Of a stretch of DNA of 64,000 nucleotides, positions 5,341 to 37,296 are shown in pieces. The notes under the pieces were generated by a model. That model made no database searches and had not been told where the DNA came from. It was given only the letters and a program-made list of their open reading frames with translations. Position numbers and translations under genes: made by a program. Within the stretch, counting starts at the first letter, position 1, and each line of letters starts with the position of its first letter. The DNA comes from a virus, in IMG/VR virus record IMGVR_UViG_3300047409_000574, positions 32,001 to 96,000 of that record; one strand, 5' to 3'.

Positions 5341-5393
5341 TCCGTCCGATGGGATGGGATACGATGATGGCTTCCGACCAAGAGAGGTAGAGC

Positions 5394-15455: not shown

Positions 15456-16022
15456 GTGGCTATCGGTCAGATGCGTGAGGCAGGTCGCCCGACGCGGGCG
15501 ATTCGTCTCACCTTCAACCCGAAGGTGACCTGCCCCGCCGGTGACCCGGTGTACGAGAGTCCCGAGGGGTCGGGGGTGCGCTGCGCGATCGAGCGGAACA
15601 CGCTTTCGGCGTTGCGTGATCCGTCCTCGCTTCTGACGTTCTGCCTGTCGCGGTACGACTCGTGTCCGACCTGGGAGTTGGAGAAGCGGCGGGTGGCGGA
15701 TCGGATCGCTCGGGAGCTTGCCGATGATCGCTCGGATCAGATCGAGCGTCCCCCGCTTCCGGCGGCGGTCTCGCTTGGTGGCGAGACCGAGGTCACCTAC
15801 TTCGAGGGTGACTGAGTGGGCGGCTCGATGACGACCGTGCCGAAGAAGCGGGTGATGGTGCCCGTGCCCGGCATGTACCTGACCGACGGAGTTGTGCTGG
15901 TCGAGTGCGTGTTGAAGCAGCGCAACGGCTGGCAGGTCGCAAACGTTGTGACTGATGCGCGTGAAGTGATCTCGCTTGCTCATCTCGCGAACTGGCGGGA
16001 GGTGACTCCGAGTGCCGCGTGA
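15456..16022 (+). CDS. Two adjacent hypothetical proteins (15456-15815, 15816-16022)
   Basis: Abutting ORFs immediately upstream of the portal. Confidence 0.5.
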
Positions 16023-18598: not shown

Positions 18599-18846
18599 AC
18601 GGCGTCGATACACGAGACAACCGCGACCCGGAGTTGATCGGGGTGGAGCTTCACCGTGCACGGGAGCAGCATCCCGACGGCGGGCTGGCGGCGCTGGCCG
18701 ACAAGGCGAACCTGAACGTGCCGGACTTCGGCACACCGGAGGCGCATGAGTACCGGGTGCGCGGCAACGGCCAGGTGGCCGCTGTCGGCGAGTTCTTTGT
18801 GCGCGGCCTAGACTCCGGGCGTGACGCAGCCGCGCCCGAGCACTAG
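18595..18846 (+). CDS. Hypothetical protein
   Basis: ATGA-coupled 83-aa ORF. Confidence 0.45.
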   Translation: MNGVDTRDNRDPELIGVELHRAREQHPDGGLAALADKANLNVPDFGTPEAHEYRVRGNGQVAAVGEFFVRGLDSGRDAAAPEH

Positions 18847-21800
18847 CTCGCAGCCGCCGGAGCGGCAGCCGCCACCCGGAACCCTTCCCCCCGGTGAGGT
18901 GGCTGCCGCTCTTGGTGTGACCGCCGGTGCGGGCGCTGCGGTGGTGGCCCCGGCCGCGCCGGGCGTGGTGGTGGGGGCGGTCAGTGAGGCTGGGCTGCTG
19001 GCGGCGATGGCGGCGATCGTCAAGGCGTTCAGTGTGTTCCAGCGCAAGCGCCGGAAGGATGAGGCGATCTGGTTGACGGTGGCGTTGCGCCGCCAGTTTC
19101 CGCATCGCACGGAGAAGCAGATCACGACGCTGGTCGATGATGAGCTTCGCCGGGAGGCGGAGTTCCAGCGGAAGGCGCGCGACCGGATGGAGCGTGATCT
19201 GCCGAAGGCGTTGCGCATCTCTGATCCGGTGGAGCGGCAGGCGGCGGTGCAGGCGTTGCTCGACCGGGAGAAGCGCTACGTGGACATGCGTGAGGAGGCG
19301 ATGGCGAAGCGCGCGTCGGCGAAGGCGGAGTTGCACGACGTGAAGGAGGTCTCGCCGGACGGCGCGTACTGGAAGCTCGGCGACGCGGTCACCCACACTC
19401 TGGACTGTCACCCCCCAGGGGTTCTAGTCGAGGGGCCGGAGGCGCTGGCGTCCTTTGCCCGGCCATATACGGGAAAGCTCCTCCGCATCATGCTCGCCGG
19501 TGGACAGGAGCTTGCCGTCACCCCAAACCACCCGGTACTGACCGACGCCGGGTGGAAGGCCGCGAACACGATCCATGAAGGCGACTGCCTGTTCTGCGGC
19601 GGCAGGGGCGAGGGGGACGGCCTCACAGTGGACGACCATCAGGATGCGCCATCCAGCATCGCGGAGGTGTATCAGGCGCTTCAAGACGCGCCGACGAGCT
19701 TTAGGGCCACACGCAGTATCGGTGCGCTCGATTTCCACGGCGACGGCATGCCCGAGTCCGAAGTCAACGTTGTAGCGCTCGGCCGCGACTTGTTGAGGGA
19801 CTGGGTCGAAGCCCAGGTCGATGAGCCAGTCCCCGAAGATGTGTTCCTCGTTCGTGATCCAATGTGCGCTGGCCTGGCGACCGTTGGCGCGCGCGAGCAG
19901 CGCCGCGTCGGAAGGCTTGATTCCCTTGCGGGCGTGTTGGCCGACGGCGACGGCGACACGCCAGGTAGCTCTCTCGTCCGGGGTCATTCGGCCGACTGCC
20001 AGAGTCGTCGCTTCTCTGACGCCGCGTATCGTGACTCCCGCCTTGAGCAGCTTGCCCTTGAGCGCCTTGCGCGAGATGGAAAGCTCGTCGGCCAGACGCT
20101 TGACGGACTCGCCGGTCTCATAACGACGGACTATGTCGTCGAGGTTGTCGAGGACGATTTCTCTGGTCACGTCTACAGCCTTTCAACTCGTGGCGGGTGG
20201 TATGCGGCCAACGGAGTGATCGTCGCCAACTGCATGTTGATGGCCGAGCGCTTCTGGCCTTGGGTCGTATTAGACCAAGTTCACCCTCTCATGCATACCG
20301 GTTGCAAATGCTATTTGGTTTCCAAGCGAGAAGCCGTCGAGCGGGGCTACATGGAAGCGGACTTCGTGCCAGACGAGAAGGACGCCGTCGCAACCGCTGT
20401 TGCGAACATGCGCCGCGCCGGTCACATCCAGGAGGTGGCTTGGCCGGAGGAGATCGAGCAGTTCATCGAGGACACGCTGACCGAGGCTGACGAGGGCGCG
20501 TCGCTCGACGGGGCGATGATCGCGTTCTATGTGGAGCCGACCACGGCGAAGAAGCTCGCGCTCGGAGGCAAGGACACCGAGCCGCCGGAGCAGTTGCATG
20601 TCACGCTCAAGTTTCTGGGGGACGATGCGAGCAAGATCAAGAACCGCGCGAAGATCGAGCGGGTGCTGGCGGAGTTCGCGGCGGGCGAGAAGCCACTCGT
20701 GGGGAAGGTCGCGGGTCTCGGTGAGTTCAAGGCACCGTCGGGCGGCAAGGAGGGCACGGTGAAGCCGGTGTTCGCTAAGCCGGACGTGTCCGGCCTGTCG
20801 GCGTTCCACGATCGGCTGATCGACGCGCTGGGCAAGCTCGTGCGCGAGGACGACTACGACAGCTATGTGCCGCACATCACGCTGGCCTATGTGCCGAAGT
20901 CGAAGCCGCTCGGCGAGGTGGAGAAGCCACCGGCGTTGCCGTTGCGCTTCGAGGAGATCACGCTGGCGTGGGGCGGGGAGAAGAAGTCGTGGAAGCTTGG
21001 GGCGAAGCTCCAGGAGGCCCGGTGGGAGCGGCGCTTCCCGAAGGGGAGCGAGCACGCGGGTGAGTTTATGCCGAAGGCGGCGACGGCGATCCGGCGGACG
21101 GTGCGGGCGGCGCTCAAGGACTTGGTGCCTGCGAAGCCGGTGCCGTTGTTGCAGGAGCGCGGGAAGCCGCAGGGCCGCCATGTCTGGTTGCGTGGCCGGT
21201 TCGTGTTTGTGCCGCGTCGGAAGGCGTGGAACCGGAAGCTCGACCATGTGCACTTCCACTCTCCGGCGCAGTCCACGAACATCTACCGGAACGGGAATCT
21301 GGTGCAGATCGAGGGGCAGCCTGCGCCGCCGCACCATCACGATCTGAACCCGCCGACGGGCGCGGACATTCGCAACATTCCCGGCACGGCGGAGTACGAC
21401 CCCGGCCACCCGGACAAGGGCGATCCCGGCAAGCGTTCGGCGCGTTCGCAGGGGCGCACACGTGAGCAGGAGATCGGTTCGCTGGAGTCGCTGCTGCGCG
21501 ACCCGGAGCTTCCGCGTGACGATCGGATTCGCTATTCGGCGAAGTTGGCGGAGCTTCGCGGCGACCACAAGTTGGCGGCGAGCTTGCGCGCTCGACTGGG
21601 CGACAAGGGGGGCGTGCACGACGCACCGGACTTGAGCGACGAGGCTGTCGTGGCGTTGCGCGAGAAGATCGTTCAGGCGCGCGCGCCGGAGATGGATGAG
21701 GTGAACGCGCGGGTCGAGCGGGCGCTGGCCGAGCAGGACTTCAACGTGAAGCCGATCCTCGACGGTGACTCGATGCCGATTGTGTCGGAGGTGCTCGAAG

Positions 21801-24800
21801 CGCACGGCTTCGCGGCTGGCGGGGTGTGGCAAGACCACGCCAAGAAGCCGCTGTCGGAGTGGGGCACGGACACGTCGGTGTCGTTCTTCCATCCGGCGTC
21901 GGGCGCGCGGGTGACGGTGTGGTGGCGGATGGGCGAGTTCCGGGTCAGGCACGAGGTGTGGGGGCAGGGTCGGAAGAACTGGGATCACCCGCCCGAGCCG
22001 GACGATCATTCGCCGCGCGACTGGGAGGAGTTCGCCGACGAGGTGCGCGGGGTGGCGTTCCGGCTGGCGCACGAGAACGGTGCGTCGCCGAACGTCGGCG
22101 AGGTGGAGCACGACCCGACGGTGAGCGATCACGGCGGCTTCCACAACAGCTACACCGGCCTGATCCGTCTGGGCGAGGACTCCACTGACGTGCTCGATCT
22201 CGCCGCGCTACGCACGGGGACGACCTACGACAGACGGCCGTCGCCGGAGGTGTTGCAGGGCGTGTGGGCGTCGTACAAGGTCGGCGTGCACGAGGCGATC
22301 CACGGGGCCGGGAACGGGATCGGGAACGAATACCAGGTGGCGAGCCACAAGTCGGTCGAGGAGGCGCTGACTGAGGAGCTTGCGCATATCGAGACGGTGA
22401 AGCTGCTGCGCGCGCACGGCGCGACCGACGTGCTGGAGTGGTATCGCGCGCACCCGTTCGACTACCGCTCGCTCGGCACCTACTGGCCGCACCGGCGGGC
22501 GATCGACACGATCTTGAATCAGGCGGGGATCGCACCGGAGTTGCGGGAGGACTACCTGCGCAACCTGCGCTGGAACGTGAAGCCGTTTCTTCGGATCGAG
22601 ACGCTGGTGGACGCGGTGGTCGCCGGGCCGAATCCGCACAACAAGGATCGCGACAAGACCCATCACTGGGTGACCGATCTGCTCACGCGTGCGGAGGAGA
22701 CTGGCTACGGCGGCGACAAGTTCGTGCCGATCCTGCGCCCTGATCTGCGTGACATGGCGGGGCCGGACGGGGTGATGTGGAACGGCCGCCGGATCAGGGT
22801 CGGCTCGATCGTGCAGATCGAGACGGGCCGCCGGGAGAAGGGTCGCTGGAAGAAGGTGCTGGTCGATGCGGAGGTGCTCAAGGTCGGGCAGGCAGCCCAG
22901 CCGCCGTTCCTGTTCAAGCTCGATGTGCGCACGTCTGATGGCAAGCATCAGCACAACGTGATGAACACGCAGGTGAAGGGTGTGCATGCGACGCCGGAGT
23001 CAGTCGAGCCGCCGAGCATCGTGTTGGGCGACGCGCAGCAGGACAGCGCCGGGAAGTGGGCAGGCGAGGGCGCGCGAGTGCGGGTGCTCACCGGCCCACG
23101 TATGGGCGTCGAGGCGAACGTAGTGAGCGCGCGTTACGGCAGCCCCGGCATCCTCTTGCTCGACCACGGTGGCGAGGTTGGGACGCTGGAGACGACCACG
23201 CAGTTCACCGCCCCGCTGGAGAACCTGGAGGTTGTCCAGGAGTCGGAGCCGCCGCAGAAGATCACGGTCGGCGATCTGATCCGCTACGACGGCCGCGCGG
23301 ACGGCGGACTGTCGGAGGCGCGGGTGACCGGGATCGAGAAGTGGGGCAGCGGCGACCGGGCCGGGTTCTCGATCGAGGCGATCACGACGGAGAACAGTCT
23401 CAAGCCGGACACGCAGGTGACGTTGACGCAGGAGCGGATGACGACCGTGCAGGCGGTGCCGGAGGAGCCGCCGGTTGCGATGCCGGAGAACTGGCCGAGC
23501 TTGGCGGCGGTGGCGGTCGCGGCTGATCCCGGCGCGGTGCCGCCCGAGGCGCGCACGGCGGAGGAACGGCAGGCTCACGGCGAGCGGCTTGCGCGGGTGC
23601 GGGAGGAGTTCGCGAACGGCGTGCACGCGAAGTGGGGCGAGCGCGGGATGGGCACCCGGAGGACGAACACGGTGACGCCGATGGGGACGTGGAGGCGGCT
23701 CGCGCCGGACAAGATCGCGGCAGGCGACCATGTCCGGTTCACGTCTACCGGGCCGGTCGCGCCCGCGTTCGACTCGGAGGGCACGAAGCGGTCGTTCTTC
23801 GTCAAGACGGTGGTCTCCAGCGCGAAGGGCCGGGCGGTCGTCACTGACATAACCGGCGTGGAGTACACGATCACTTCGGCGCAGCGGCCGACTAAGGAGC
23901 ATCTCAAGACTGGCTACCACGATCTGTTGCTTCGGCTGGCGAAGGCCAAGGGCTACTTGGCGAGCCACACCGATCCGATGTATGCGATCTACGACCACCA
24001 GGACGACGTGCACAAGGTGCTGACGGGGCTGGTGACCAACCAGGAGGGGTCGCTCCAGTCGAGGCGTGAGGTGGCGGTACGGGTGCAGGGAGACTCGTTT
24101 GCGGCGGTGCTGGCGGCCGGGCGGATACAGAACGGTCACGAGGACGGCAGTCTGCTGCCCGTCCGGTGGAAGGACAGGCCCGGCGAGGGCGGCTACGGCG
24201 CGCGCCGGTGGGAGTGGGAGCAGCGGGCGTTCTCGATCCCGGAGGGCGCGCCCGCGGCCGACCATCCGATCTACGGCTACGTCGCGACGCCGAACGAGTC
24301 GCTCGACCGGTCGATCGCCAAGGCGTTCGGCGAGGTGAAGGTGACGCTCAAGGACACGGTGCGTCCGCGTACGACGGTCACCTACTCCGACTCGAACTAC
24401 ATCGGGGTGCCGACGGGGGATGCGATGCCGTCGCCGATCAACCGGCCGCAGGAGCACTCGGTGGTGCCGTGGCAGCACGAGGGGTTCGGCTGGGTGCGCA
24501 AGCCGGTGGTCGAGATGGGCGACCGGCCGCGCCCGTATCCGCCGTTCACCCCGAGGGAGGAGGCGCTGATCCGGCAGGCCGGGCACACGTGGGGCGCGAG
24601 CGACCCGAAGGAGATGGAGGCCAACCGGGAGGCGAAGCGTCGGGAGGTCGCGCGCGCGAAGGGCTGGGAGCCGTGGGCGCACGGCGACTTCATCGAGGCG
24701 CAGATTCACGGCGGGATCGGACTCGACGATGTGGCTCGGGTGGACTTCCCGGCGAGCTTGGAGTCGGTGCCGCCGGAGTGGACGGCGGAGCTTGACCGGC

Positions 24801-27800
24801 TGGGGATTCCGTGGGCGCACCAGCCGGTCGATGACGCGGGCGCAGGAGAGAAGGGTGACGCGCCGGGCGGGTATCCGAAGTCGTCGCCGGAGTCGTTGGA
24901 GATGCCTGCTGGGACAACGCTCTGGCATACGACTCCGGCCTACTCTGAGGATGCGGTTCGCGCCGAAGGGTTCCGGGCGAGTCCGCACGGCGAGAGCGGC
25001 CCAGGCATCTACATGACCGATGATCCGACGTTCCGCGACAGGATGACGCGGTACGAGGAACTGTCTGGGCGTGGCGGCGCGGAGCGGGTTGCGATCACCG
25101 CGATCACGACGAGGCCGCTGCGGCTGCTTGACCGGCAGACACCGGAGGGCGAGGCGCTGCTGCGCAAGATTCAGCAGGACGCGTCGGCGAGCGGGGAGGG
25201 TGCGCAGCCGGGGACGTTGACGGGGTTGCGGGCGGCTGGCTTCGACGGTGTCCGGTACGACTCGTTCGGCGACATGGAGGTCGTGATCCACGACCCGACG
25301 GCGCTGGCGATCGTCGGCGGCGAGAAGGGTGACGTGCAGGAGCCGTGGCAGGTGCCGAAGCTGGAGTTCGCACCGAAGCCGGACTATCCGAAGGAGGTGT
25401 TCGACGCGTACATCGCGCGCACGCTTCCGCAGGCGAAGAACGACGAGGTCGCGGACGCGTGGAACACGCTGCGCGAGCGCGAGCAGGAGTGGGACGCGAG
25501 CATGCGCCGGGCGCTCTCGCTCGGACAGATCACGCTCCCGGATGCGAAGGCGCTCGGCTACTACCCGATGGGCCACGAGCAGGAAAGCGAGTATGTAAAG
25601 GGGACGGGCTGGCAGCCGCTTCCGCCGGTGCTTTACCACGTGACGACGGCGGCGTCGGCGGTGCGCGCGATGGGTCTCAAGACTCGCGCCGAACTGGAGA
25701 TGGACAACGGAGTTGGTCTAGGCGCGGGCGACGACGCGACGATCAGCTTCACGGCTGATCTGCCGACGGCGGTGGGGATCGAGCGGGCGATCCGGGAGGC
25801 GGTCGAGGTGCTGGCCGGGCGGGTCACGCTCGACGAGATCATCGAGCGGGCCAAGACCGGTTCGGATGCGCAGCGGCCGTACTACAACGAGTGGGCGGAG
25901 AGCAGGAGTGGGCCGAACGGGGAGGAGCCGAAGTTCCTGGAGTGGATGCGCCGGGGCCGCAAGATCGACACGAGCTTCCAGGGCGCTTTGCTACCGACGC
26001 TGGCCGGGTGGCGGGAGGCGCTCGGTGTCGAGGATGTGGAGGGTGTCGGCGAGCCGTACATGGGCGCGAAGGACGGGGTGCCGCGCTTCGCGTCGGTGAC
26101 TCGTCCGATGACGGAGGAGGAGCGCCAGCACGCGGTCTGGGATGTGTGGCGGGAGCTTGCGATGTCCCGGGAGAACATCGGCGGCGGCCCGATCGACCCG
26201 ATGTTCATGTCCACGGACACGGCGGCGCTGGCGCGGGTTGATCCGAACGAGATCGCGACGCTGACGGTGCATCCGAAGCCGGGCGCGCAGGGCTACCCGA
26301 TGAGCGGGCTGGGGGAGTGGCGGACGGCGACCGGCGACGCGGTGCAGGTCGTGGGCCTGGGCGAGAAGGGCGACCCGCCAGTGGGGCCGCCTGGCCCGCG
26401 CGCGGAGGCGGTGCAGTTGACGCCGGAGGAGTTCGCGGCGCATCCGCGCACGTGGTGGCACGGCACGAAGTTCGGCAAGCTCGCGGACTCGGTCGAGACG
26501 AGCGGGCAGGGCTTCCACATCGGCACTTACGAGGCGGCGCGGGAGGCGGTTGCCGCGCAGACCGGAGACGATCCTGGCCCGCGAGGCGATCCGCAGGCGT
26601 TGGCGCTCGGTGTGTTCAGCAGGTACATGGTCGAGCCGCAGGCGCAGGCTGACGGTAGCTACACGTTCGACTACCAGACCGCGCCCGGCAAGGCATGGAA
26701 CCGCGACTACGGCACGATGCGGGTGCGGTTCGAGGGCGACTGGATCGTCGCTGATTCGACGCCAGGCCCGGCCGTGGAGACAGGAACGCGTACCGTCCAG
26801 TCCGCCACCGGGCCGATGGAGCTTCCGGCCTACGAGCCGTTTGAGCCGTGGTTGCGCACCGCGAGCAGGAGGTCGTGGTTGGGGGCGCGGTACAACGGCG
26901 TGGAGCTTCTGCCGCCGGGCAAGCGGCCGTACACAGACGCGGGCGTACTTGCTGGCCCGAACGCGCCATCGGAGCCGTTGGAGGGGATGAAGATGGTGCC
27001 GGTTTGGATTGTCGGGGAGATGACGAACACGCCCCGAGACCCGCGCAAGGATGGTGCGGCGAACGCCAGGATGACTTCGTTGCTCAAGCGCGGCCAGGCC
27101 CGGCGCGGCTGGTTCTACGAGAATGACTCTGAGGATGCCGGGTCGGTTTCGGCGGCGCTTCCCTCGCGCGCGCATGTGCGGACGCATGAGGACTTCGTGC
27201 GGGAGGCGGTGCAGAGCGGTGAGCCGGTGCCCGCGCATGTGCTTGCGAGCTACCCGGCGCTTGGTGAGAAGGGCGACGTGCCGCTCGACAGCTTGAACCC
27301 GACGGATGGAGTATTCGCGGACTACACCCCGGCAGAGCGCGCGAGCGCTCCGCTCGGTGGTGCTCTCACGACGCTCGACAAGACGATGGCGGTCGATCCC
27401 GAGACGCCGGTGACGATCTACCGTGGTGCTCCGGCGCATCAGCGGGAGATCGCGCCGGGCGACTTCGTCACCACGAACTTGCAACTCGCCAGGGACTACG
27501 GCGGCGGCCACGTGATCGAGAAGCAGGTGCCCGCATCGCATGTGCTCGATGACTCGTCGGAGCCGCTCGGCGAGGAATACATCTACCGTCCACCCCCGAT
27601 CACCGGTCGTCCGTTCGAGGCGACGATGTATCACGGCACGTTGCTGCGCAACCGGCCGTCGATTCTCCGGCACGGCCTGCGGCCCGACCCGGACACAAAC
27701 GACGTGTGGTTGACCGACAACGAGAAGAACGCTCGGAGCTACACCGACCGGACGATGATGGGCGCTCGCGGCGCGGTCGTGACGGCGAGGGTGCGGCTGG

Positions 27801-30800
27801 AGAATCCGTTTGTGATCGACCGGACAGGAGCGAACGCTGACCGTGATCTCTGGAAGCTGTTGGAGCCGGAAGGAATCAAGGACGGCGACGCGTTCTGGGG
27901 CGACGCGTTGAGGGCGCGTGGCTACGACGGGATCATTCATCGTGGCGATGAGGGAACCGATGTAGAGGTGTTCGGTGACCATGCGGGCCAGGTGTCGGTG
28001 CTCGGTGCGGAGAAGTCGAGCGGCGAGAAGGGCGGCGGCAGTCTCGGCGAGCACGACCATGTGAATCAGGGCTACTGGTCGGAGGACAACCCACTGTTCT
28101 TCCCAGAGCATCCCGCCGTTCAGTTGCAGGACGGACGAGAGCAGGCGTTCTGGAAGGCGACCTACTACCCGCGCATGGACGACTTCGACTTCTGGCTGGC
28201 GAACGAGAAGGGCATGCCGCACCACGACGAGGTGCGTAGCAACCGCGACCCGTTCGAGTCGCGTGGTGCGAGCATCGACGTAGCCGGGTACGGGCCGGAC
28301 TGGACGCCGGACAAGCACTACGCGGAGTGGATTCGCGAGGTGGCTGACAACATCGCGTCGGGTTCGACACCGGAGGAGCTTGGCTACCTGTACGCCGACG
28401 AGGTGCCGCCGCACGACGAACTGGTGCAGGAGGTCTACGACGACTTGGTGGGCCGGATTCGTCAGCGGGTGCGGGGCTACCGGCGTGACATGAATGACGC
28501 GGTCGCGATGGCGTCGGGCGAGAAGGGCGACCGGCCGTACAGTGTCGTGCCGGACGTGCCGCCGGGCGACAAGGGCGATGTTGGCCCGCCGCGGGTGTAC
28601 GCGCCGTTCGACCCGGCGGCGATCGGTCTGAACGAGAAGGACAGCGCGGGCAAGCTCTACACCTGGCACGGCGAGATGCAGAGGGCGACCGGCCAGCATG
28701 TGCGCGGCAACCCGATCGCGCCGAACGACCCGCGTATCCCGCCGGTGCTTTACCACGCGACGACGAACCTTCCGGCGGTGCTCGACGACGGCTACTTGCG
28801 CGGGCGCGGGGAGGGCGGGCTGGGCGGCGACGACACCGACCGGATCGTGAGCCTGACGACTGACGCGCAGACGGCCGTGCAGATCGCGGCCGACCTGCAC
28901 TTCCTGGGCAGGCTCGGCCGTGAGTTCCCGGTGATGCCTGCCTATTCGGAGACGAAGGTGCCGATCGAGGCGAGCGACCCGGAGTGGATGCAGAGCCTCG
29001 ATTCCAAGACGCTGATCGGGGACGAGCGTGTCGAGACGAACCAGCGGATAGTCGAGATGCTGGTTGCGCAGGCCAAGAGCGAGGGGTGGGAGTTCGGTTC
29101 CGCTGCGACGAAGGGCGACGGCGGCCCGTCGTGGAAAACCTACGACCTGGGTGACTGGTTGAACCAGTATTTCCATGAGCGCCGCTCGCAGATCGGAGTC
29201 CAGAACCCGATCGTGTTCAACACGACCGAGACGGCGCGCAGCATCGACCCGGACAAGGTCGGCGTGGTCGTGGTGGACAAGGCGGCGCTTGACAACGGGG
29301 CGGTGCTGACGGACTTCGATCTGTCGCGTGACTTCGGCTTGAGCGAGATCAGGAGCTACGGCGACGTGCGGGTGACGGGGCCGATCCGCGACTCGCTGCT
29401 CGTCGGTTACGGCGCGCCCGGCCTGGCGACGGGGGAGAAGGGCGGCACGCCGGACACGGTCGAGCCGCACATCGTGGCGGCCTACGAGGCGCGCAAGGCG
29501 CTGCACGAACTGCTCTACCGGCGCAACGGGATCGAGCACCAGGACACGCCGGAGTGGCGGGCGGCCGACGAGGCGGTGCAGGCGGGCGAACGGGTGACGG
29601 CGGAGGCCGAACGTGTCGCGGGCGGCCGGGTGTTCCGGCTGCGCGAGGATCAGTTGCACCAGGCGAACAAGAAGATCAACGACCTCGCGCGCCGGGCAGC
29701 CAAGCTCGGGCTGGCCGAGCCGCGCATTGTGCCGATGGGCGACGAGTTCCACCCGGTGATGAAGGACGGCCAGCCGACCGGCGACCTGGCGAAGCTTTCC
29801 TACATCCGCGTGGAGGGTGAGGAGCCGAAGATCGCAGGCTGGGAGTTCCTGGCGACGTTGCAGCATCTCGGCGGCGTGAATGTGGTGCGCCGGGTGCCGG
29901 GCAACGATGAGGGCATCTCGTTGGAGCAGTACCACCACGGCGACGCGGTCTGCGACTACTGCAAGACCAAGCGCGACCGGAAGGACACGTTCATCGTGCG
30001 CAACGTCGAGTCCGGGCTGACCCAGCAGATCGGCCGGTCGTGCCTCAAGGACTTCCTGGGGCACGGCGATCCGACGGCTATCGCGGCGTACTTGGAGCGC
30101 TGGCGGGCGATGGACGATCTCGGCAGCCTGGGGGATGACGACGGGGAGGGTGGCGGGCGCGTCAAGACGTATCTGCCGCTCGACGACTACTTGACGCATG
30201 TGGCGACGATGCTGCGCACGCAGGGCTGGTCGCCGCGCTCGGGCACCGGGTTCGCGACGGCGGATGCTGCGCGGGAGAACCACTACAACTTTGTGCGCAA
30301 GAACAACGACCAGCGCGGCAGGCCGATGTACGAGGTGCCGACGGCGGAGGATGAGCAGCGGGCGAAGGACGCGCTCGACTGGGTGCGCACCACGCTCGCG
30401 CCGAAGCAGAACAAGTCGGAGTTCGAGCACAACATGGCGGCGATGACGAGCGGGTCGCATGTGCCGGAGCGCGGGGAGGGGATCGTCGCCTACGTGCCGG
30501 TCGCGCACGCGAAGGCGCTGGAGAAGGAGATCGTGCTCCAGCGCGAGCAGACAGCACGCGGCACGTCGGAGCATCTCGGCACGGTGAAGGAGCGCTTGAA
30601 GCTGCGGCTGACGGTGGAGGCGGTGTTCGAGCGCGAGGGTGACTACGGGGTGACGTACATCACCCGGATGGCCGACCCGGACGGGAACATCGTCAAGTGG
30701 TTCGGCTCCTACCCGTTGGAGCAGGGCAAGACCTACGAGGGCATGTGGGGGGTGAAGAAGCACGACGAGTACAAGGGCGGCAAGGAGACGGTCGTGACCC

Positions 30801-33800
30801 GGCCGACCAAGCTGGAGATGGTTGTCGAGGACACCGGCGAGAAGGGTGACGCGCCGGTGCGCTACGAGGGCGACTTCCTGGAGCGCCGGGCGCAGCGGGA
30901 TGCGGCTGCTGCCGCCCTGGCGACCGGGGGGCCGGTGCATGCGCCGTCGGAGTTCATCACGTTGCCGAAGTCGGGCAAGCTTCGCGCGCCCGCGATGGAG
31001 GCGCTCGCGGCGCTCGATTCGTTGCTGGTGATTCCGCCGATGCATGGGCCGATTCCGGTGAAGGCGACGGCGGGCAAGAACACGCGGGGTGGCTATGCGC
31101 GCAGGCCGGATGCGGATGCTCCGCGCGCGCCGGTTTGGGAGGGGCCGACGGTGCGTATGACGGGCTTCGGCAAGGGCCGCTCGAACCGTCCGGCGAAGCT
31201 CGCGTCGGAGATCGCGGTTGGTGACGTGATCGTGTTGGCGGCGGGCTACTACGCGCCGGTGACGGCGACGAGCCAGGAGGAGCACGAGATCGGGTTCGGG
31301 CGTGAGCCGGTGATGAAGGCGCATATCACGATCGACCGGGGCGAGGGGGGCAAGCCGAACCTCCAGGAACTCACGTACAAGCCGGACGAGTTGATCCCGT
31401 TCCAGTGGGCACCGGCCGCGGCGGATGTGCCGGAGCATCCGACGTTGTATCCGAAGGAGATCAGGGTGTCGGTCTCGGATGACAGGGACACCGACTCGGC
31501 GCTGGCAACGCTGATTCACGAGATGGGCCACTACATCGACAACCAGGCGTTCCGTAACTACCCGCGGATGGCGGGGTTCGCGACCGACCATGCGGGCTTC
31601 CGTGTGAGGGGGGATGAGAAGGAACGCCGTGAGGCGGTCGAGCGGATGCGCGCTGCGGGCCAGAAGGGCGTCGATCTGTTGGAGCTTTACGATGCGGAGG
31701 AGACACCGTTGTCGGCGTGGTTGGAGGCGGTGCGGGACAGCCCCGAGGCCGAAGGGTTGCGCACCGGCGTGTCGTACGCGGAGGCGGCCACGCACAAGTA
31801 TTTGCTTTCGCCGAAGGAGTTGTGGGCGCGCTCGTTCGCCCAGTGGGTGGCGACCCGTTCCGACAACCCGGCGCTCAAGGCGTGGCTGGTCTCGTTGCAG
31901 AACCAGCCGGACACGCACATCGTGCAGCACAAGCGTTACGACCGGGTGGCGCACGCGAACGTGCTGGTGCCGGTCGAGGAGAAGCGGCCGAACTATCTGC
32001 TGTTGCGCCAGTGGTCGGATGAGAACTTCGTGCCGATCGGCGAGGCGATGGACGTGCTGTTCGAGCGTCTACACTGGTTGCGTGGCGGAGCCGGGAGTGG
32101 ACGAGACGGGGACACCGATCCTGTTGCCGGACGGCTCGTTGGAGGCCGATCCGGTGGAGGAGTTGGTGATCGACATGCTCTGGTCGCCGACGCTCTCGCC
32201 GTCGCCGGACTAGGCGAGAAGGGAGGCTCCGGCCTGCCGGACACGGTGTGGTTGGAGACATCGCCGTCCGATCTCGGGCATGCGCGCATGAAGGATCGGG
32301 TGCCGTGGAGCTACGACCCGGCGAGCGGCCGGTTGTTCATCGGCTCGGGCGGTTCGGATCACACCGAGCTAACGCGGGCGATGCGCGCGCAGGGTCACGA
32401 GATGGGCGACGACGAGTGGAACGGCGTGTGGATGATGGACGGCCCGAGCGTGGGGGTGCATGTGCACTCGAACCTGGGGCCGCCGGACTTCGGCAACCCG
32501 CTGGGTCACGATGAGCCGTTGCCGCCGGTGCTGGCGTCGCGGTTGCGCCAGGCGTTCGGCGGGCCGCTGCACGGGCACGCTGGCGGGGAGAAGGGTGATC
32601 CCGGTGTCGCGTCGCTCAAGGGCGACGGGCCGTTGCCGATGGAGAATGGTCTCTACTACCGCCTACACACGGTGGGTGCGCCGTTCGGGCCGGAGCATGC
32701 GAGCACGGTGCCGCCGATCCCGGAGGAGGTGGCCGCGTCGAGCGAGGTGATGCGTGGACTCGCGACGCCGAAGCCGGGCTACTCGGCGTTCTGGAATCCG
32801 CATCATCTCGTCCAGTACGCGGAGGCGATGAGTTGGGAGCCGACGAAGGTGCGGGTGCTCGCGTTCCGGGGCACACCGATCGGCGAGGGCAGCGATGGTG
32901 AGCCGCGCGTGATGCCGGACTCGACGAAGGTCGAGGCGCGGATGGGCTGGCAGAAGTTCGTGGATCGCACCGACTGGACGCCGAACGGCTACGGGATGTG
33001 GCACGAGCACACGTGGGGCGATGGGCCGGACGGTCGGATCGCCGACGACGGCTACCGCACGCTCGCGCAGCTAGGTGACAAGGGCGACATGACGAACCCG
33101 GAGTTGCTCGGCGGCGCGTGGACGTTGCCGATCACGTACGACCGCGACGGTCTCCACCATGTGGTGCCGATCGACGCGACGATCGCGCCGGACGTGCAGC
33201 GTGCGATCGACCGGGGCTTCACTACGGTGGCGTCGTGTTCGGGCTTGAAGGCCGATCATCCCGAAGGGGCGGGCAACCCGCACGCAGGCCGGTCGGGCGA
33301 CGGCTATCTGGCGTTCCCGTTGGCGGCTCACTCACCGGAGCAGATTGCGGCGATCGAGCACGCCGCGAAGCAGGCTGGGTTTGCTCATCTCTACGCCGAC
33401 GTTTACGGCGAGCCTGGGCTGATGGTCTACACGCCAGACATGAAGCTGCGCCAGCGCGCGTACCGTCAGGCGAACGAGGCGGTTGGGCTGGCCCCGGATG
33501 CCGACCCGCCCTCTGGGGCTGCGTTCAACGAGTGGTATGCAGCACGCGTGGCCGCGTTCAAGAGGCTGGGTGTCGGCCGGGCGACCGACGAGGAGGTCGC
33601 ACCGGCGTGGCGGGAGTTCTTCGACACGCTGAACGGTGCACGCCAGCCGGTGGACTACGCGAGCATCCCGCCGGTGCTCTATCACGCGGCGCGTGACTCG
33701 ACCGCGAGCGGCGGCGGCGATCCGGTGGTGCATGTCGAGGTCGCCCCGGCGGCGGCCGAAGCTGGCGCGCTGATCCAGGCGGGACACGAGCGCGCCGGTG

Positions 33801-34654
33801 TGGTGGAGATCACACGTGACGCGCTCGCGGGGAGCGATCTTATCCGGCTGCCGGACGGTTCGATCCAGGTGCGCGGCAACCCGAACTTCGGCGGCGAGAA
33901 GGGCGACCCGAGCCTGCCGGAGTCCACACGGGTCGAGCCGACCGACGAACTGCTCGCGGAGATCGAGAAGCTCCAGGCGAGCGTCGGCGGGCGCGGCAAG
34001 CTCGGCAGGCAGGGCGACACGGATGATCTGCTCGGCGAGGTGCTGAGTGACATGCGTTACGCGCGACGGCTGCCGGAGTATGCGGCGGCGTACAAGTTCT
34101 ACGAGCGGCGCACACCGGATGGCGGGATCGCCGGGCTGATGGTGCTGGCCGACCCGCCGCTGAACGTGCCGGAGCACCGGCTGCCTTACGGCATGACGTT
34201 GGACAACACGGTTGTGCTCGGGCGGCTGGTGAGTGTGCAGCCGGGCACCGGCACGATCATGCTGCGCGACGCGGCCCGCTACGCGGCCGAGCATGGCAAG
34301 GGGCTGGTGTTGTGGTCGCTGCCGGGCGCGCGCGAGTTCTACCGCAAGGCGGGCATGAGCGAGGAGAAGGACGGCTGGGTTTACAAGGAGTGGTGGACGG
34401 CGGAGCAGGTCGCCGACCACACACGTAGGCTGGTCGAGAGCCTTGACGAACCTGCGGTAGCAACCGCCGCAGGCAGCGCGGACGGGGACAGGGCCGGGGG
34501 GTTCAGTCCCGTCCGCGCGCTACTTGAAACGCTCGGGGTGCCGCCGGAGGAGGAGGAGGAAACACTGGTGAAGCTGCTGCTGCTCGGCGAGGGGCGGGAG
34601 CGGTTCATGCGGGAGTGGTGCGGGGAGGCCGGGGTGGACTTCGCCGTTTTGTGA
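18821..34654 (+). CDS. Giant (5277 aa) MuF-like minor head / polyvalent protein: MuF with intein, 2H phosphoesterase, two zincins, multiple ADP-ribosyltransferase-like modules, Zn-finger/OB module, GNAT
   Basis: Follows the portal; C..HPLMHTGCKC MuF-type motif; LHVTL/PHITL; HEAIH and HEMGH; repeated [LW][YW]H.T/YRG..G[YF]DG motifs; GTGT..L..AREFYRKAG. Confidence 0.85.
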   Translation: MTQPRPSTSSQPPERQPPPGTLPPGEVAAALGVTAGAGAAVVAPAAPGVVVGAVSEAGLLAAMAAIVKAFSVFQRKRRKDEAIWLTVALRRQFPHRTEKQITTLVDDELRREAEFQRKARDRMERDLPKALRISDPVERQAAVQALLDREKRYVDMREEAMAKRASAKAELHDVKEVSPDGAYWKLGDAVTHTLDCHPPGVLVEGPEALASFARPYTGKLLRIMLAGGQELAVTPNHPVLTDAGWKAANTIHEGDCLFCGGRGEGDGLTVDDHQDAPSSIAEVYQALQDAPTSFRATRSIGALDFHGDGMPESEVNVVALGRDLLRDWVEAQVDEPVPEDVFLVRDPMCAGLATVGAREQRRVGRLDSLAGVLADGDGDTPGSSLVRGHSADCQSRRFSDAAYRDSRLEQLALERLARDGKLVGQTLDGLAGLITTDYVVEVVEDDFSGHVYSLSTRGGWYAANGVIVANCMLMAERFWPWVVLDQVHPLMHTGCKCYLVSKREAVERGYMEADFVPDEKDAVATAVANMRRAGHIQEVAWPEEIEQFIEDTLTEADEGASLDGAMIAFYVEPTTAKKLALGGKDTEPPEQLHVTLKFLGDDASKIKNRAKIERVLAEFAAGEKPLVGKVAGLGEFKAPSGGKEGTVKPVFAKPDVSGLSAFHDRLIDALGKLVREDDYDSYVPHITLAYVPKSKPLGEVEKPPALPLRFEEITLAWGGEKKSWKLGAKLQEARWERRFPKGSEHAGEFMPKAATAIRRTVRAALKDLVPAKPVPLLQERGKPQGRHVWLRGRFVFVPRRKAWNRKLDHVHFHSPAQSTNIYRNGNLVQIEGQPAPPHHHDLNPPTGADIRNIPGTAEYDPGHPDKGDPGKRSARSQGRTREQEIGSLESLLRDPELPRDDRIRYSAKLAELRGDHKLAASLRARLGDKGGVHDAPDLSDEAVVALREKIVQARAPEMDEVNARVERALAEQDFNVKPILDGDSMPIVSEVLEAHGFAAGGVWQDHAKKPLSEWGTDTSVSFFHPASGARVTVWWRMGEFRVRHEVWGQGRKNWDHPPEPDDHSPRDWEEFADEVRGVAFRLAHENGASPNVGEVEHDPTVSDHGGFHNSYTGLIRLGEDSTDVLDLAALRTGTTYDRRPSPEVLQGVWASYKVGVHEAIHGAGNGIGNEYQVASHKSVEEALTEELAHIETVKLLRAHGATDVLEWYRAHPFDYRSLGTYWPHRRAIDTILNQAGIAPELREDYLRNLRWNVKPFLRIETLVDAVVAGPNPHNKDRDKTHHWVTDLLTRAEETGYGGDKFVPILRPDLRDMAGPDGVMWNGRRIRVGSIVQIETGRREKGRWKKVLVDAEVLKVGQAAQPPFLFKLDVRTSDGKHQHNVMNTQVKGVHATPESVEPPSIVLGDAQQDSAGKWAGEGARVRVLTGPRMGVEANVVSARYGSPGILLLDHGGEVGTLETTTQFTAPLENLEVVQESEPPQKITVGDLIRYDGRADGGLSEARVTGIEKWGSGDRAGFSIEAITTENSLKPDTQVTLTQERMTTVQAVPEEPPVAMPENWPSLAAVAVAADPGAVPPEARTAEERQAHGERLARVREEFANGVHAKWGERGMGTRRTNTVTPMGTWRRLAPDKIAAGDHVRFTSTGPVAPAFDSEGTKRSFFVKTVVSSAKGRAVVTDITGVEYTITSAQRPTKEHLKTGYHDLLLRLAKAKGYLASHTDPMYAIYDHQDDVHKVLTGLVTNQEGSLQSRREVAVRVQGDSFAAVLAAGRIQNGHEDGSLLPVRWKDRPGEGGYGARRWEWEQRAFSIPEGAPAADHPIYGYVATPNESLDRSIAKAFGEVKVTLKDTVRPRTTVTYSDSNYIGVPTGDAMPSPINRPQEHSVVPWQHEGFGWVRKPVVEMGDRPRPYPPFTPREEALIRQAGHTWGASDPKEMEANREAKRREVARAKGWEPWAHGDFIEAQIHGGIGLDDVARVDFPASLESVPPEWTAELDRLGIPWAHQPVDDAGAGEKGDAPGGYPKSSPESLEMPAGTTLWHTTPAYSEDAVRAEGFRASPHGESGPGIYMTDDPTFRDRMTRYEELSGRGGAERVAITAITTRPLRLLDRQTPEGEALLRKIQQDASASGEGAQPGTLTGLRAAGFDGVRYDSFGDMEVVIHDPTALAIVGGEKGDVQEPWQVPKLEFAPKPDYPKEVFDAYIARTLPQAKNDEVADAWNTLREREQEWDASMRRALSLGQITLPDAKALGYYPMGHEQESEYVKGTGWQPLPPVLYHVTTAASAVRAMGLKTRAELEMDNGVGLGAGDDATISFTADLPTAVGIERAIREAVEVLAGRVTLDEIIERAKTGSDAQRPYYNEWAESRSGPNGEEPKFLEWMRRGRKIDTSFQGALLPTLAGWREALGVEDVEGVGEPYMGAKDGVPRFASVTRPMTEEERQHAVWDVWRELAMSRENIGGGPIDPMFMSTDTAALARVDPNEIATLTVHPKPGAQGYPMSGLGEWRTATGDAVQVVGLGEKGDPPVGPPGPRAEAVQLTPEEFAAHPRTWWHGTKFGKLADSVETSGQGFHIGTYEAAREAVAAQTGDDPGPRGDPQALALGVFSRYMVEPQAQADGSYTFDYQTAPGKAWNRDYGTMRVRFEGDWIVADSTPGPAVETGTRTVQSATGPMELPAYEPFEPWLRTASRRSWLGARYNGVELLPPGKRPYTDAGVLAGPNAPSEPLEGMKMVPVWIVGEMTNTPRDPRKDGAANARMTSLLKRGQARRGWFYENDSEDAGSVSAALPSRAHVRTHEDFVREAVQSGEPVPAHVLASYPALGEKGDVPLDSLNPTDGVFADYTPAERASAPLGGALTTLDKTMAVDPETPVTIYRGAPAHQREIAPGDFVTTNLQLARDYGGGHVIEKQVPASHVLDDSSEPLGEEYIYRPPPITGRPFEATMYHGTLLRNRPSILRHGLRPDPDTNDVWLTDNEKNARSYTDRTMMGARGAVVTARVRLENPFVIDRTGANADRDLWKLLEPEGIKDGDAFWGDALRARGYDGIIHRGDEGTDVEVFGDHAGQVSVLGAEKSSGEKGGGSLGEHDHVNQGYWSEDNPLFFPEHPAVQLQDGREQAFWKATYYPRMDDFDFWLANEKGMPHHDEVRSNRDPFESRGASIDVAGYGPDWTPDKHYAEWIREVADNIASGSTPEELGYLYADEVPPHDELVQEVYDDLVGRIRQRVRGYRRDMNDAVAMASGEKGDRPYSVVPDVPPGDKGDVGPPRVYAPFDPAAIGLNEKDSAGKLYTWHGEMQRATGQHVRGNPIAPNDPRIPPVLYHATTNLPAVLDDGYLRGRGEGGLGGDDTDRIVSLTTDAQTAVQIAADLHFLGRLGREFPVMPAYSETKVPIEASDPEWMQSLDSKTLIGDERVETNQRIVEMLVAQAKSEGWEFGSAATKGDGGPSWKTYDLGDWLNQYFHERRSQIGVQNPIVFNTTETARSIDPDKVGVVVVDKAALDNGAVLTDFDLSRDFGLSEIRSYGDVRVTGPIRDSLLVGYGAPGLATGEKGGTPDTVEPHIVAAYEARKALHELLYRRNGIEHQDTPEWRAADEAVQAGERVTAEAERVAGGRVFRLREDQLHQANKKINDLARRAAKLGLAEPRIVPMGDEFHPVMKDGQPTGDLAKLSYIRVEGEEPKIAGWEFLATLQHLGGVNVVRRVPGNDEGISLEQYHHGDAVCDYCKTKRDRKDTFIVRNVESGLTQQIGRSCLKDFLGHGDPTAIAAYLERWRAMDDLGSLGDDDGEGGGRVKTYLPLDDYLTHVATMLRTQGWSPRSGTGFATADAARENHYNFVRKNNDQRGRPMYEVPTAEDEQRAKDALDWVRTTLAPKQNKSEFEHNMAAMTSGSHVPERGEGIVAYVPVAHAKALEKEIVLQREQTARGTSEHLGTVKERLKLRLTVEAVFEREGDYGVTYITRMADPDGNIVKWFGSYPLEQGKTYEGMWGVKKHDEYKGGKETVVTRPTKLEMVVEDTGEKGDAPVRYEGDFLERRAQRDAAAAALATGGPVHAPSEFITLPKSGKLRAPAMEALAALDSLLVIPPMHGPIPVKATAGKNTRGGYARRPDADAPRAPVWEGPTVRMTGFGKGRSNRPAKLASEIAVGDVIVLAAGYYAPVTATSQEEHEIGFGREPVMKAHITIDRGEGGKPNLQELTYKPDELIPFQWAPAAADVPEHPTLYPKEIRVSVSDDRDTDSALATLIHEMGHYIDNQAFRNYPRMAGFATDHAGFRVRGDEKERREAVERMRAAGQKGVDLLELYDAEETPLSAWLEAVRDSPEAEGLRTGVSYAEAATHKYLLSPKELWARSFAQWVATRSDNPALKAWLVSLQNQPDTHIVQHKRYDRVAHANVLVPVEEKRPNYLLLRQWSDENFVPIGEAMDVLFERLHWLRGGAGSGRDGDTDPVAGRLVGGRSGGGVGDRHALVADALAVAGLGEKGGSGLPDTVWLETSPSDLGHARMKDRVPWSYDPASGRLFIGSGGSDHTELTRAMRAQGHEMGDDEWNGVWMMDGPSVGVHVHSNLGPPDFGNPLGHDEPLPPVLASRLRQAFGGPLHGHAGGEKGDPGVASLKGDGPLPMENGLYYRLHTVGAPFGPEHASTVPPIPEEVAASSEVMRGLATPKPGYSAFWNPHHLVQYAEAMSWEPTKVRVLAFRGTPIGEGSDGEPRVMPDSTKVEARMGWQKFVDRTDWTPNGYGMWHEHTWGDGPDGRIADDGYRTLAQLGDKGDMTNPELLGGAWTLPITYDRDGLHHVVPIDATIAPDVQRAIDRGFTTVASCSGLKADHPEGAGNPHAGRSGDGYLAFPLAAHSPEQIAAIEHAAKQAGFAHLYADVYGEPGLMVYTPDMKLRQRAYRQANEAVGLAPDADPPSGAAFNEWYAARVAAFKRLGVGRATDEEVAPAWREFFDTLNGARQPVDYASIPPVLYHAARDSTASGGGDPVVHVEVAPAAAEAGALIQAGHERAGVVEITRDALAGSDLIRLPDGSIQVRGNPNFGGEKGDPSLPESTRVEPTDELLAEIEKLQASVGGRGKLGRQGDTDDLLGEVLSDMRYARRLPEYAAAYKFYERRTPDGGIAGLMVLADPPLNVPEHRLPYGMTLDNTVVLGRLVSVQPGTGTIMLRDAARYAAEHGKGLVLWSLPGAREFYRKAGMSEEKDGWVYKEWWTAEQVADHTRRLVESLDEPAVATAAGSADGDRAGGFSPVRALLETLGVPPEEEEETLVKLLLLGEGRERFMREWCGEAGVDFAVL
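19406..20230 (+). mobile_element. Intein (275 aa) in the MuF domain, with no in-frame endonuclease motif
   Basis: Starts CHPPGVLV; block B VTPNHPVLTDAGW; block F/G GHVYSLST.GGWY.ANGVIVAN followed by +1 Cys. Confidence 0.85.
19424..20170 (-). CDS. Antisense HTH plus Vsr/DUF559-like PD-(D/E)xK endonuclease nested in the intein
   Basis: IVRRYETGESVKRLADELSISRKAL..L..AGVTIR HTH; EE.F..WL..LG..PQ..RYNVDF..VAVEIE..LRDAGWRILMV; GAAAGG SD 8 nt upstream. Confidence 0.7.
   Translation of the reverse strand: MTREIVLDNLDDIVRRYETGESVKRLADELSISRKALKGKLLKAGVTIRGVREATTLAVGRMTPDERATWRVAVAVGQHARKGIKPSDAALLARANGRQASAHWITNEEHIFGDWLIDLGFDPVPQQVAAERYNVDFGLGHAVAVEIERTDTACGPKARRRVLKRLIHLRDAGWRILMVVHCEAVPLAPAAAEQAVAFMDRVRGLPPGVGQYRVVWGDGKLLSTGEHDAEELSRIWPGKGRQRLRPLD
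21410..33907 (+). repeat. Dispersed in-frame G-[ED]-K-G-[DG] inter-domain linker (15 copies including one PDKGD)
   Basis: Copies start at 21410, 21599, 24845, 25319, 26360, 27263, 28022, 28517, 28565, 29432, 30836, 32213, 32585, 33074, 33893. Confidence 0.9.
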
Positions 34655-36944: not shown

Positions 36945-37011
36945 TTGCAGGGGCTTGCAGGTTGCAACGCTGGTGGCTATCGTTCGAGTTCCGACCTTGA
37001 GAGGTAGAGAG

Positions 37012-37296
37012 ATGAGTTTGCGACCTTTGGCAGACCGCGTTCTCGTGTTGCCGGAAACCGGCGCGGAGAATGTCGGCGGTGTGTTCATCCCGGAGCAGTT
37101 CCGGGACAAGCAGAAGATGGGCATGGTGAAGGCGGTCGGCCCCGGCCTGCCGGACGAGCAGGGCAGGCGGGTGCCGCCGCAGGTCGAGGTGGGCGACAAG
37201 GTGCTCTACTCGCAGTACGGCGGGATCGACGTGGAGATCGACGGGGTCAACTATCTCGTGCTGCGAGAAGGAGATTTGATCGGGGTGGTGGAGTAA
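37012..37296 (+). CDS. groES: Co-chaperonin GroES
   Basis: LRPLADRVLV..GGVFIPE..G.VKAVGPG..VEVGDKVLYSQYGG..DGVNYLVLREGDLIGV. Confidence 0.95.
   Translation: MSLRPLADRVLVLPETGAENVGGVFIPEQFRDKQKMGMVKAVGPGLPDEQGRRVPPQVEVGDKVLYSQYGGIDVEIDGVNYLVLREGDLIGVVE

Follow-up and report, generated by a model that had tools for sequence, protein, structure and literature searches.

We analyzed a 64,000-nucleotide stretch of viral DNA (the window; bases 32,001 to 96,000 of a single virus record, IMGVR_UViG_3300047409_000574, of 126,255 bp) that contains a giant open reading frame (ORF) whose product is punctuated by a short motif, G-[ED]-K-G-[DG]. The long frames with high GC content at third codon positions lie nearly all on the + strand. 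Positions below are those of the window unless the genome is named, and protein positions are given in amino acids (aa).

18821..34654, + strand: giant polyvalent virion-cargo ORF, GTG start, open for 5277 codons, 5277 aa

The database gene call for this ORF, P0002, has 5245 aa. The initial annotation reported 15 in-frame copies of the motif in it, and all of them (15/15) were confirmed, 14 as G[ED]KG[DG] and one as PDKGD. They are listed with the residue number and, for some, with what lies at the same place in relatives of the giant protein (P numbers) or where high-scoring segment pairs (HSPs) with these relatives begin or end.

21410..21424, + strand: PDKGD, degenerate (aa 864); aligns with GEKSDG of P0003; position-specific scoring matrix (PSSM) score 11.1
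21599..21613, + strand: GDKGG (aa 927); aligns with GEKSGG of P0003
24845..24859, + strand: GEKGD (aa 2009); a P0019 HSP ends here, on P0019's own GAGK
25319..25333, + strand: GEKGD (aa 2167)
26360..26374, + strand: GEKGD (aa 2514); P0004, P0007, and P0044 HSPs stop 2-4 aa before it
27263..27277, + strand: GEKGD (aa 2815); junction common to P0003 (GEKSGG) and P0019 (GAGK)
28022..28036, + strand: GEKGG (aa 3068)
28517..28531, + strand: GEKGD (aa 3233)
28565..28579, + strand: GDKGD (aa 3249); 16 aa past the preceding copy
29432..29446, + strand: GEKGG (aa 3538); aligns directly on GMGAGK of P0019
30836..30850, + strand: GEKGD (aa 4006); 5 aa past the end of a stand-alone-type module
32213..32227, + strand: GEKGG (aa 4465)
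32585..32599, + strand: GEKGD (aa 4589); junction common to P0003
33074..33088, + strand: GDKGD (aa 4752); junction common to P0003 (GEKSGG) and P0019 (GAGK)
33893..33907, + strand: GEKGD (aa 5025); a P0019 HSP begins on P0019's own GMGAGK

Amino acid composition predicts 0.054 copies of G[ED]KG[DG] in the giant ORF, where 14 were observed, and 2,000 shuffles of the ORF gave a mean of 0.048 copies and a maximum of 3. The motif is not collagen Gly-X-Y, as the initial annotation had also held, because each copy is an isolated pentapeptide, with spacings of 16 to 1082 residues, rather than part of a tandem run. Proline is overrepresented 2.7-fold in the 10 residues that follow the motif, and GEKGD is followed by P in 4 of the 14 copies.

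Synonymous variation among the copies had been read as selection on the peptide rather than on a DNA site, and the codon data agree with this. At the 22 sites found in the whole genome, the first Gly is encoded by GGC (15), GGG (3), GGA (2), or GGT (2), and the fourth-position Gly by GGC (14), GGT (6), GGG (1), or GGA (1), which is close to the Gly codon background of the ORF (GGC 55%, GGG 25%, GGT 13%, GGA 6%). The 30 nucleotides flanking each copy on either side were unrelated by eye, and BLASTP of the giant protein against itself returned no internal match at E<0.01. The repeated unit is the peptide alone, which therefore points to selection at the protein level.

The motif is also found in other genes. 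A six-frame scan of the whole genome gave 22 copies, every one of them in a + strand coding frame and all within four proteins: 14 in the giant ORF, 1 in an intein-containing ORF, 2 in a GNAT-like ORF, and 5 in a 2395-aa ORF. The eight copies beyond the giant ORF thus lie, all in frame, in three more cargo-like proteins; those in the window, at 38009, 42958, and 43075, add to the list of the initial annotation. When a PSSM built from the sites was scanned over 157 + strand ORFs, the scores were bimodal, with 22 sites at 19.5 or above and the next best, PDKGD, at 11.1. For the shorter G[ED]K, 15.9 occurrences are expected and 35 are present; 22 of these carry the full motif and 13 do not. Three variants of the form G[ED]K[SA]GG were found, at 39662 and 48352 in the window and at 116069 of the genome, the last in the 2395-aa ORF. 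By both the genome scan and the PSSM, the motif is absent from the capsid protein, the portal, the head protease, and the tail genes. The other ORFs with the motif or a variant are as follows.

37907..39886, + strand: 659-aa ORF with a LAGLIDADG intein; GEKGD at 38009-38023 (aa 35) and GEKSGG at 39662 (aa 586)
41887..43917, + strand: 676-aa ORF; GEKGG at 42958-42972 (aa 358) and GEKGD at 43075-43089 (aa 397)
46450..48468, + strand: 672-aa Zeta_toxin/AAA_33 kinase-like ORF; HPRGRGGKW at 46876 and the variant GDKAGG at 48352 (aa 635)
Genome 110,351-117,538, + strand, outside the window: 2395-aa ORF with PG_binding_1 and endolysin-like matches; 5 copies

The homing-endonuclease domain of the 659-aa ORF is LAGLIDADG_3, and the "terminase" and "primase" PHROG matches of this ORF probably reflect inteins in those families. 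In the 676-aa ORF a weak GNAT match (aa 482-523) follows shortly after both copies, which are closely paired (42958-43089, 39 residues apart), like those at 28517-28579 in the giant ORF (16 residues apart). The 2395-aa ORF, probably an ejected cell-wall-degrading protein, has four copies within residues 198-343, delimiting pieces of ~20-60 aa, and a fifth at residue 2073. A second signature, HPRGRGG[KQE]W, occurs in four cargo-like ORFs, at 37949 (HPRGRGGQW, 37949-37975), 40331, and 46876 in the window and at aa ~183-191 of the 2395-aa ORF, and in two proteins the junction motif follows it by 8-12 residues. A looser form, HP[RK]..G.[WF], often LHPR[GD]RxG[KR][WF], was present in 21 of 111 proteins examined. 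HPRGRGG[KQE]W may be a capsid-targeting or docking motif; a literature search on this leader found no relevant description.

To place the motif relative to the modules of the giant protein, we compared the protein with its relatives, 108 in number, which came from querying 1.84 billion representatives with aa 757-1590 in a full HMMER scan; the analyzed proteins with at least 1,000 aa number 77, the giant ORF included. The initial annotation had put the motif at module boundaries from 24845 onward, and homology breakpoints do fall at the motif. BLASTP of the giant ORF against the relatives gave 26 HSPs from aa 1600 onward, and 20 of their 52 ends lay within 15 aa of a copy, whereas random sites averaged 6.1 and reached at most 18 in 5,000 trials; this statistic is descriptive, as the 26 HSPs are not mutually independent. 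C-terminal HSP ends lie mostly 0-8 residues from the motif and starts mostly 10-45 residues after it, so the layout is that of a module, the motif, a Pro-rich spacer, and the next module, and the motif sits at the C-terminal edge of modules. An AlphaFold2 (AF2) model of aa 940-1400 opens with a confident helix, which starts 14 residues past the copy at 927. For the module at aa 3604-4001, tblastn found homologues of ~380 aa that stand alone in 143 phage records, and the alignment with them stops 5 aa before the copy at aa 4006.

Two relatives bear on the suggestion that modules are gained or lost exactly at the motif; in comparisons with them, modules are gained, lost, and reordered there. P0003 (2978 aa), an orthologue without the intein described below, carries G[ED]KS[GD]G seven times, and five of the seven align on the giant-ORF copies at 864, 927, 2815, 4589, and 4752. 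P0019 (5592 aa) carries GAGK 17 times, mostly as GMGAGK, and shares nine HSPs of 35-75% identity with the giant ORF, its modules being in a different order; of the 18 HSP ends, 10 are no more than 15 residues from a GAGK site of P0019 (random mean 2.4, maximum 9).

Other relatives have repeated spellings of their own: E-K-[AL]-D-P-G, about 13 times in P0009; R-E-D-P-G-T in P0016; G-R-A-D-P-G-I in P0060; S-P-G-R-R in P0074; G-Q-A-S-P in P0059; T-G-K-A-N-P in P0028; and S-P-G-T in P0044 and P0045. By eye, many of these share a loose core of a basic or other residue, a small residue, D/S/N/T, then P and G. The junction spelling is lineage-specific and concerted within a lineage. In an exact 4-mer test, which replaced a reduced-alphabet motif test that was too noisy (8 of 77 exceeded the shuffles and P0003 failed), 11 of the 77 large proteins exceeded the maximum of 200 shuffles; one of the 11 4-mers, EALA in P0051, looks like helical noise. 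Among the shorter homologues, a search for stand-alone modules gave 2 matches only.

Several other candidates were set aside. The P0019 motif, back-translated and searched in viral contigs, gave 19 single-match stretches that we took as chance. LAQP in L005 was rejected because it belongs to a repeat domain, a 1026-aa ORF (3967-7044 of that contig) with ~20 tandem copies of the 14-aa repeat LAQPYTV..GRS, and GGVE/KTGG in G001 was rejected as lying in a Gly-rich, repeat-like stretch. As a separate observation, the IMG/VR contig L015 has a frame of at least 1940 aa (2-5821), open at the contig end and upstream of a head protease 36% identical to that of this phage, in which M-A-T-P-[TSIG] is repeated 14 times at irregular spacings of 49-442 residues. 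BLASTP found no similarity of this frame to the giant ORF or the 2395-aa ORF, and no HExxH was found in it; the repeat seems to be a further lineage-private motif punctuating a large, unrelated protein of the virion region.

The giant ORF consists of many unrelated effector domains, namely a 2H phosphoesterase, a zincin-like domain, an ART-PolyVal ADP-ribosyltransferase (ART), and a second HExxH module, among others; at least nine of its modules are common piecemeal to other giant proteins. Pfam recognizes few of them, with weak intein, LPD1 (20.9 bits against a cut-off of 27), and DUF3626 matches. The features located within it are as follows.

19406..20230, + strand: intein (aa 196-470); weak Intein_splicing and intein_Nterm matches, Cys at both splice junctions
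20561..20971, + strand: 2H phosphoesterase (LigT/2'-5' RNA ligase-like); Pfam 2_5_RNA_ligase2, E 2.2e-10, above the cut-off
21881..22702, + strand: zincin-like metallopeptidase domain followed by a Tudor/SH3-like barrel; HEAIH at 22289-22303 (aa 1157)
27623..27973, + strand: ART-PolyVal ADP-ribosyltransferase; Pfam PF18760, E 1.5e-7, 32.7 bits against a cut-off of 31.2
29630..30823, + strand: module with stand-alone homologues (tblastn)
31517..31531, + strand: second HExxH (HEMGH, aa 4233), in the module with the weak LPD1 match

The intein splits a conserved N-terminal head-morphogenesis-like domain (aa 59-195 and 471-569), whose flanks are joined directly, without an intein, in P0003; P0021, P0054, P0075, P0080, and P0089, which align through the intein region, probably carry one too. 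The 2_5_RNA_ligase2 match spans aa 589-717, where PHROG RNA ligase families also match, and the ART-PolyVal domain lies within the motif-bounded segment aa 2815-3067. With its many domains, an ART-PolyVal match above the Pfam threshold, and a setting among virion and late genes, the ORF has the features of a polyvalent protein. The C-terminal GNAT of the initial annotation had no Pfam match. The description of the ORF as MuF-anchored was not confirmed either, since no Pfam or NCBIfam MuF/gp7 match was obtained for the giant ORF or five relatives: its N-terminal segment had no PF04233/TIGR01641 match at E<=0.01 (Pfam), P0003, P0005, and P0008 had no MuF/gp7 family match at E<=0.1 (Pfam), and P0003, P0008, P0012, P0064, and the giant-ORF segment had none at E<=0.1 in NCBIfam. 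A weak lead toward MuF comes from an embedding comparison, with a score of 0.87 to a cluster in which Phage_Mu_F makes up 82%, and the giant ORF has the gene position of a MuF-type protein, directly downstream of the portal gene. H-T-G-C-K-C at aa 492 resembles what we take to be a MuF signature, a resemblance that is no test of membership.

The portal gene directly upstream (16012-18267) and the large terminase gene further upstream (10797-12764) were identified with PHROGs, and the major capsid protein lies at 124,328-125,698 of the genome (Phage_capsid_4). The phage is a myovirus, because tail sheath, tape measure, and baseplate wedge genes are present (PHROGs/Pfam). A megablast of 12000-36000 against a phage collection found no close DNA relative, and a search with the core alignment found no orthologous loci in viral, metagenome, or genome contigs. 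A second ORF with a large-terminase PHROG match, which is partial (residues 30-232), lies at 6366-8339, and the match may be an intein-related or duplicated fragment. Two Cpn10/GroES-like genes stand among the cargo genes, at 36955-37296 (E 7e-25) and 44280-44651 (E 3e-12).

The genome also encodes two candidate proteases, one of which lies within the giant protein itself as the zincin-like domain. The other is encoded next to the capsid gene.

Genome 122,664-124,187, upstream of the capsid gene: P0113, candidate prohead protease ORF with a gp21-like fold

P0113 has no Pfam match, and searching solved structures by sequence yielded no useful match. Its model, built from a 35-sequence alignment, has a predicted local distance difference test (pLDDT) score of 80.5, and its N-terminal domain (residues 19-198) matched T4 gp21 (5jbl_A) with Z 10.4 and a root mean square deviation of 3.0, with 134 of 165 residues aligned, the next row having Z 6.8. 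Foldseek likewise placed gp21 on top (probability 0.98, E 4.6e-3), with the KSHV protease lower. H95 and S162 are nearly invariant in the 35 sequences, and the C-terminal half is modeled as long, scaffold-like helices. P0113 is accordingly modeled with an assemblin/gp21 fold and is predicted to be a T4 gp21-like prohead protease. Enzymes of this class cut after Glu, at L/I-X-E for gp21, S/A-X-E for phiKZ gp175, and A-X-E for SPN3US gp245, as described in the texts of PMC9026906 and PMC10052503. In the phage with the giant protein the sites have the form [L, G, A, S, T and others]-G-[E/D]-K, and by analogy x-G-[ED]-K would fit a cut of the gp21 class after the acidic residue. So would the spellings with E-K in P0003, P0007, and P0009 and with R-E-D in P0016.

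The zincin-like region (aa 940-1400) was modeled by AF2 with a pLDDT of 88.9 from a 23-sequence alignment, and model residues ~82-355 (aa ~1021-1294 of the giant ORF) resemble the catalytic domains of M1 aminopeptidase, LTA4H, and DPP III. Of 100 aligned domains, which come from 93 of the 108 relatives, 87 keep the HExxH (11 are gapped and 2 differ), and a conserved EEALTEE lies downstream of HEAIH, so that both the HExxH and a downstream Glu-bearing helix are present. No Pfam peptidase family matched the domain, and its model had no Foldseek match at E<=0.001.

From these sequence features, we suggest, with a probability of about 55%, that the motif is the recognition site of a phage protease that cuts the cargo into its modules. 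The giant precursor and the other motif-bearing proteins would be packaged into the prohead, and G-[ED]-K-[GSA]-[DG] would be read by one phage-encoded factor, most likely a protease. This protease would cut at module boundaries, either in the prohead or on entry, and its substrates would be the giant protein and no fewer than three or four other cargo proteins. One 570-kDa chain would thereby yield ~14-16 pieces of 16-1082 residues, delivered with the DNA, and the products would be separate enzymes, including the ADP-ribosyltransferase, the 2H phosphoesterase, the zincins, and modules of unknown function. If cut, the paired copies 16 and 39 residues apart would release short peptides.

This reading is strengthened because the motif is shared by other cargo-like proteins and has lineage-specific spellings at orthologous junctions, and because a gp21-like prohead protease is encoded and a conserved zincin-like domain is embedded in the chain. 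The first candidate reader would be the gp21-like prohead protease, cutting at x-G-E|K, and the second the conserved zincin-like domain at aa ~1021-1294. The layout resembles that of T4, with the HPRGRGGxW leader followed by the motif, and the intein ORF has a site near each end; together with the Glu rule, this layout favors the prohead protease as the reader. The absence of the motif from shell proteins favors a cargo-dedicated reader.

A number of observations weigh against such a cleavage site. Among the large relatives (at least 1,000 aa), 66 of 77 have no 4-mer that exceeds the shuffles, and the nearest ones, P0005-P0008, have only loose DEKLDPG, GLKGG, and DPGS at the aligned junctions. 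The 4153-aa homologue in a related 127.5-kb record, G002, has two zincin cores and only Pro-rich linkers, and the related ~130-kb genomes G001, G003, and G005, with homologues of 1293-1408 aa, have no concentrated 4-mer in a genome test that recovers GEKG (15 copies, 4 ORFs) from this phage. Within the giant ORF itself, there is no copy at the junction aa 2925/2926, where two P0019 modules are fused, nor at a module start near aa 1733, and P0003 has no motif at the equivalent of copy 2514. The spellings SPGRR, GQASP, and MATPT contain no acidic residue and would not fit the Glu rule. The fold match of the zincin is middling, with Z 7-8.9 over ~190-210 residues, a range common by chance. If the prohead protease reads the motif, a capsid protein, portal, and scaffold free of sites would be unexpected, because gp21-class enzymes normally cut all three. 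Finally, the text of PMC5512222 notes that a peptidase domain of this kind is present in the virion RNA polymerase of N4, and that this polymerase is packaged unprocessed.

An explanation we hold to be unlikely is that the modules remain uncleaved, as beads on a string, and that the motif is a structural hinge or turn kept uniform by recombination at the linker, as a scar or facilitator of module exchange. The reordering of modules in P0019 and their gain or loss in P0003, with breakpoints at the motif, would be expected from it, as would the Pro-rich spacers that follow the linker as in ordinary interdomain linkers, the generic linkers with which most relatives manage, and the turn-like core that is common, by eye, to many lineage motifs. 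However, the background-like third-base variation of the Gly codons and the unrelated flanks leave little DNA identity to drive recombination, and the same modules occur in lineages with unrelated linkers (GEKGD versus GMGAGK), so that exchange is independent of linker homology. The suggestion of the initial annotation that the linker serves as microhomology for swapping modules is weakened by these same two points. Nor does a passive hinge explain residue-exact conservation with a bimodal score, or why a separate protein has a copy between its 34-aa leader and its body. The concerted spelling, taken with the synonymous variation and the unrelated flanks, makes a single trans-acting reader likelier than recombination alone.

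Such a reader need not be a protease, and the motif could instead be a docking or modification signal (e.g., at its Lys) for packaging, for hand-off to a chaperone, or for pausing or unfolding during ejection, a possibility we regard as improbable. Its confinement to cargo-like proteins, the two Cpn10/GroES genes among the cargo genes, the Lys or Arg in most lineage spellings, and its place close to the HPRGRGGxW leader in two proteins would all suit a signal of this type. No reader of such a kind was identified, however, and GQASP, LASPAL, and MATPT lack a basic residue. For packaging, a single signal in each protein should also suffice, whereas the giant ORF has 14. A 2A-StopGo reading was rejected on sequence, since its consensus, D-V/I-E-x-N-P-G-P, is not matched here. 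A compositional accident in a high-GC ORF rich in Gly (10% of residues) and in Glu plus Asp (15%) has next to no likelihood, being refuted by the counts given above (14 copies against 0.054, all 22 genome copies in coding frames of four proteins, and the excess of G[ED]K) and by the PSSM.

A further proposal, which we make tentatively and hold to be somewhat less likely than not, goes beyond the protease site: the giant cargo proteins would be true polyproteins with a private cleavage grammar, in which the motif of each lineage co-evolves with its protease and motif-flanked modules are packaged, cut free, and injected. Such a grammar would amount to plug-in delivery of anti-host enzymes, either within the giant protein or from genes with the HPRGRGGxW leader. 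Polyvalent proteins are thought to carry the phage's first strike against host defenses, and their processing has so far been conjecture. A residue-exact motif provides concrete, testable sites and allows module boundaries to be read in giant proteins that are otherwise unannotatable. Should it prove to be a cleavage code, it would account for the way in which one chain of 570 kDa is turned into many small enzymes able to pass the tail, and it would provide a means of loading phage heads with proteins of choice.

The initial annotation knew of no description of the linker, and we likewise found no lineage-specific junction motif in print, although preprints or subscription papers may describe one. 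Among the papers listed for GEKGD, most concerned collagen, the rest other topics, and none phage; a search on polyvalent proteins combined with prohead protease, cleavage, or polyprotein found no junction motif described.

Eukaryotic RNA-virus polyproteins have a repeated short junction consensus that differs between lineages, with the protease in the same polyprotein. A repeated junction consensus and virus-encoded candidate proteases are both present here, whereas the domains and the protease families are unrelated and cleavage here is a prediction. MuF polymorphic toxins share with the giant protein a head-morphogenesis-type N-terminus, variable toxic or enzymatic modules, and presumed delivery with the DNA, and those of temperate phages are multi-domain proteins (Jamet et al. 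2017, PMC5576092). The giant protein differs from them in its unconfirmed MuF domain, its ~15 modules, and its junction motif.

In T4, internal proteins have short targeting leaders that are removed by gp21, and the ART Alt is trimmed at both ends (PMC9026906). Some propeptides of ejection proteins are cut at several sites in the class formed by T4, phiKZ, 201phi2-1, and SPN3US, as the texts of PMC9026906 and PMC10052503 describe. This phage, too, encodes a protease predicted to have the gp21 fold. In contrast to the sites described for T4, phiKZ, and SPN3US, which are three residues long and serve to remove propeptides of separate proteins, the motif here has five to six residues and lies between the 14-16 modules of a single chain, and neither the capsid protein nor the portal contains it.

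The idea of a polyprotein, put forward in the initial annotation, fits the published proposal for polyvalent proteins and for that reason is not new: these proteins have been compared with RNA-virus polyproteins, and release of their domains by embedded zincin-like or by assemblin-like peptidases has been proposed (Iyer, Burroughs, Anand, de Souza, and Aravind 2017, PMC5512222). Polyvalent proteins, the polyprotein analogy, processing by embedded peptidases, and gp21-class processing of ejection proteins are thus already known. The words "linker," "boundaries," and "low-complexity" are absent from the main text of PMC5512222, whose supplementary files could bear on junctions. Like the polyvalent proteins described in that text, the giant protein combines many anti-host domains in one chain, has virion genes as neighbors, and contains ART-PolyVal. 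Unlike them, as far as that text describes them, it has at each junction a residue-exact, lineage-specific motif, and it shares this motif with separate cargo genes.

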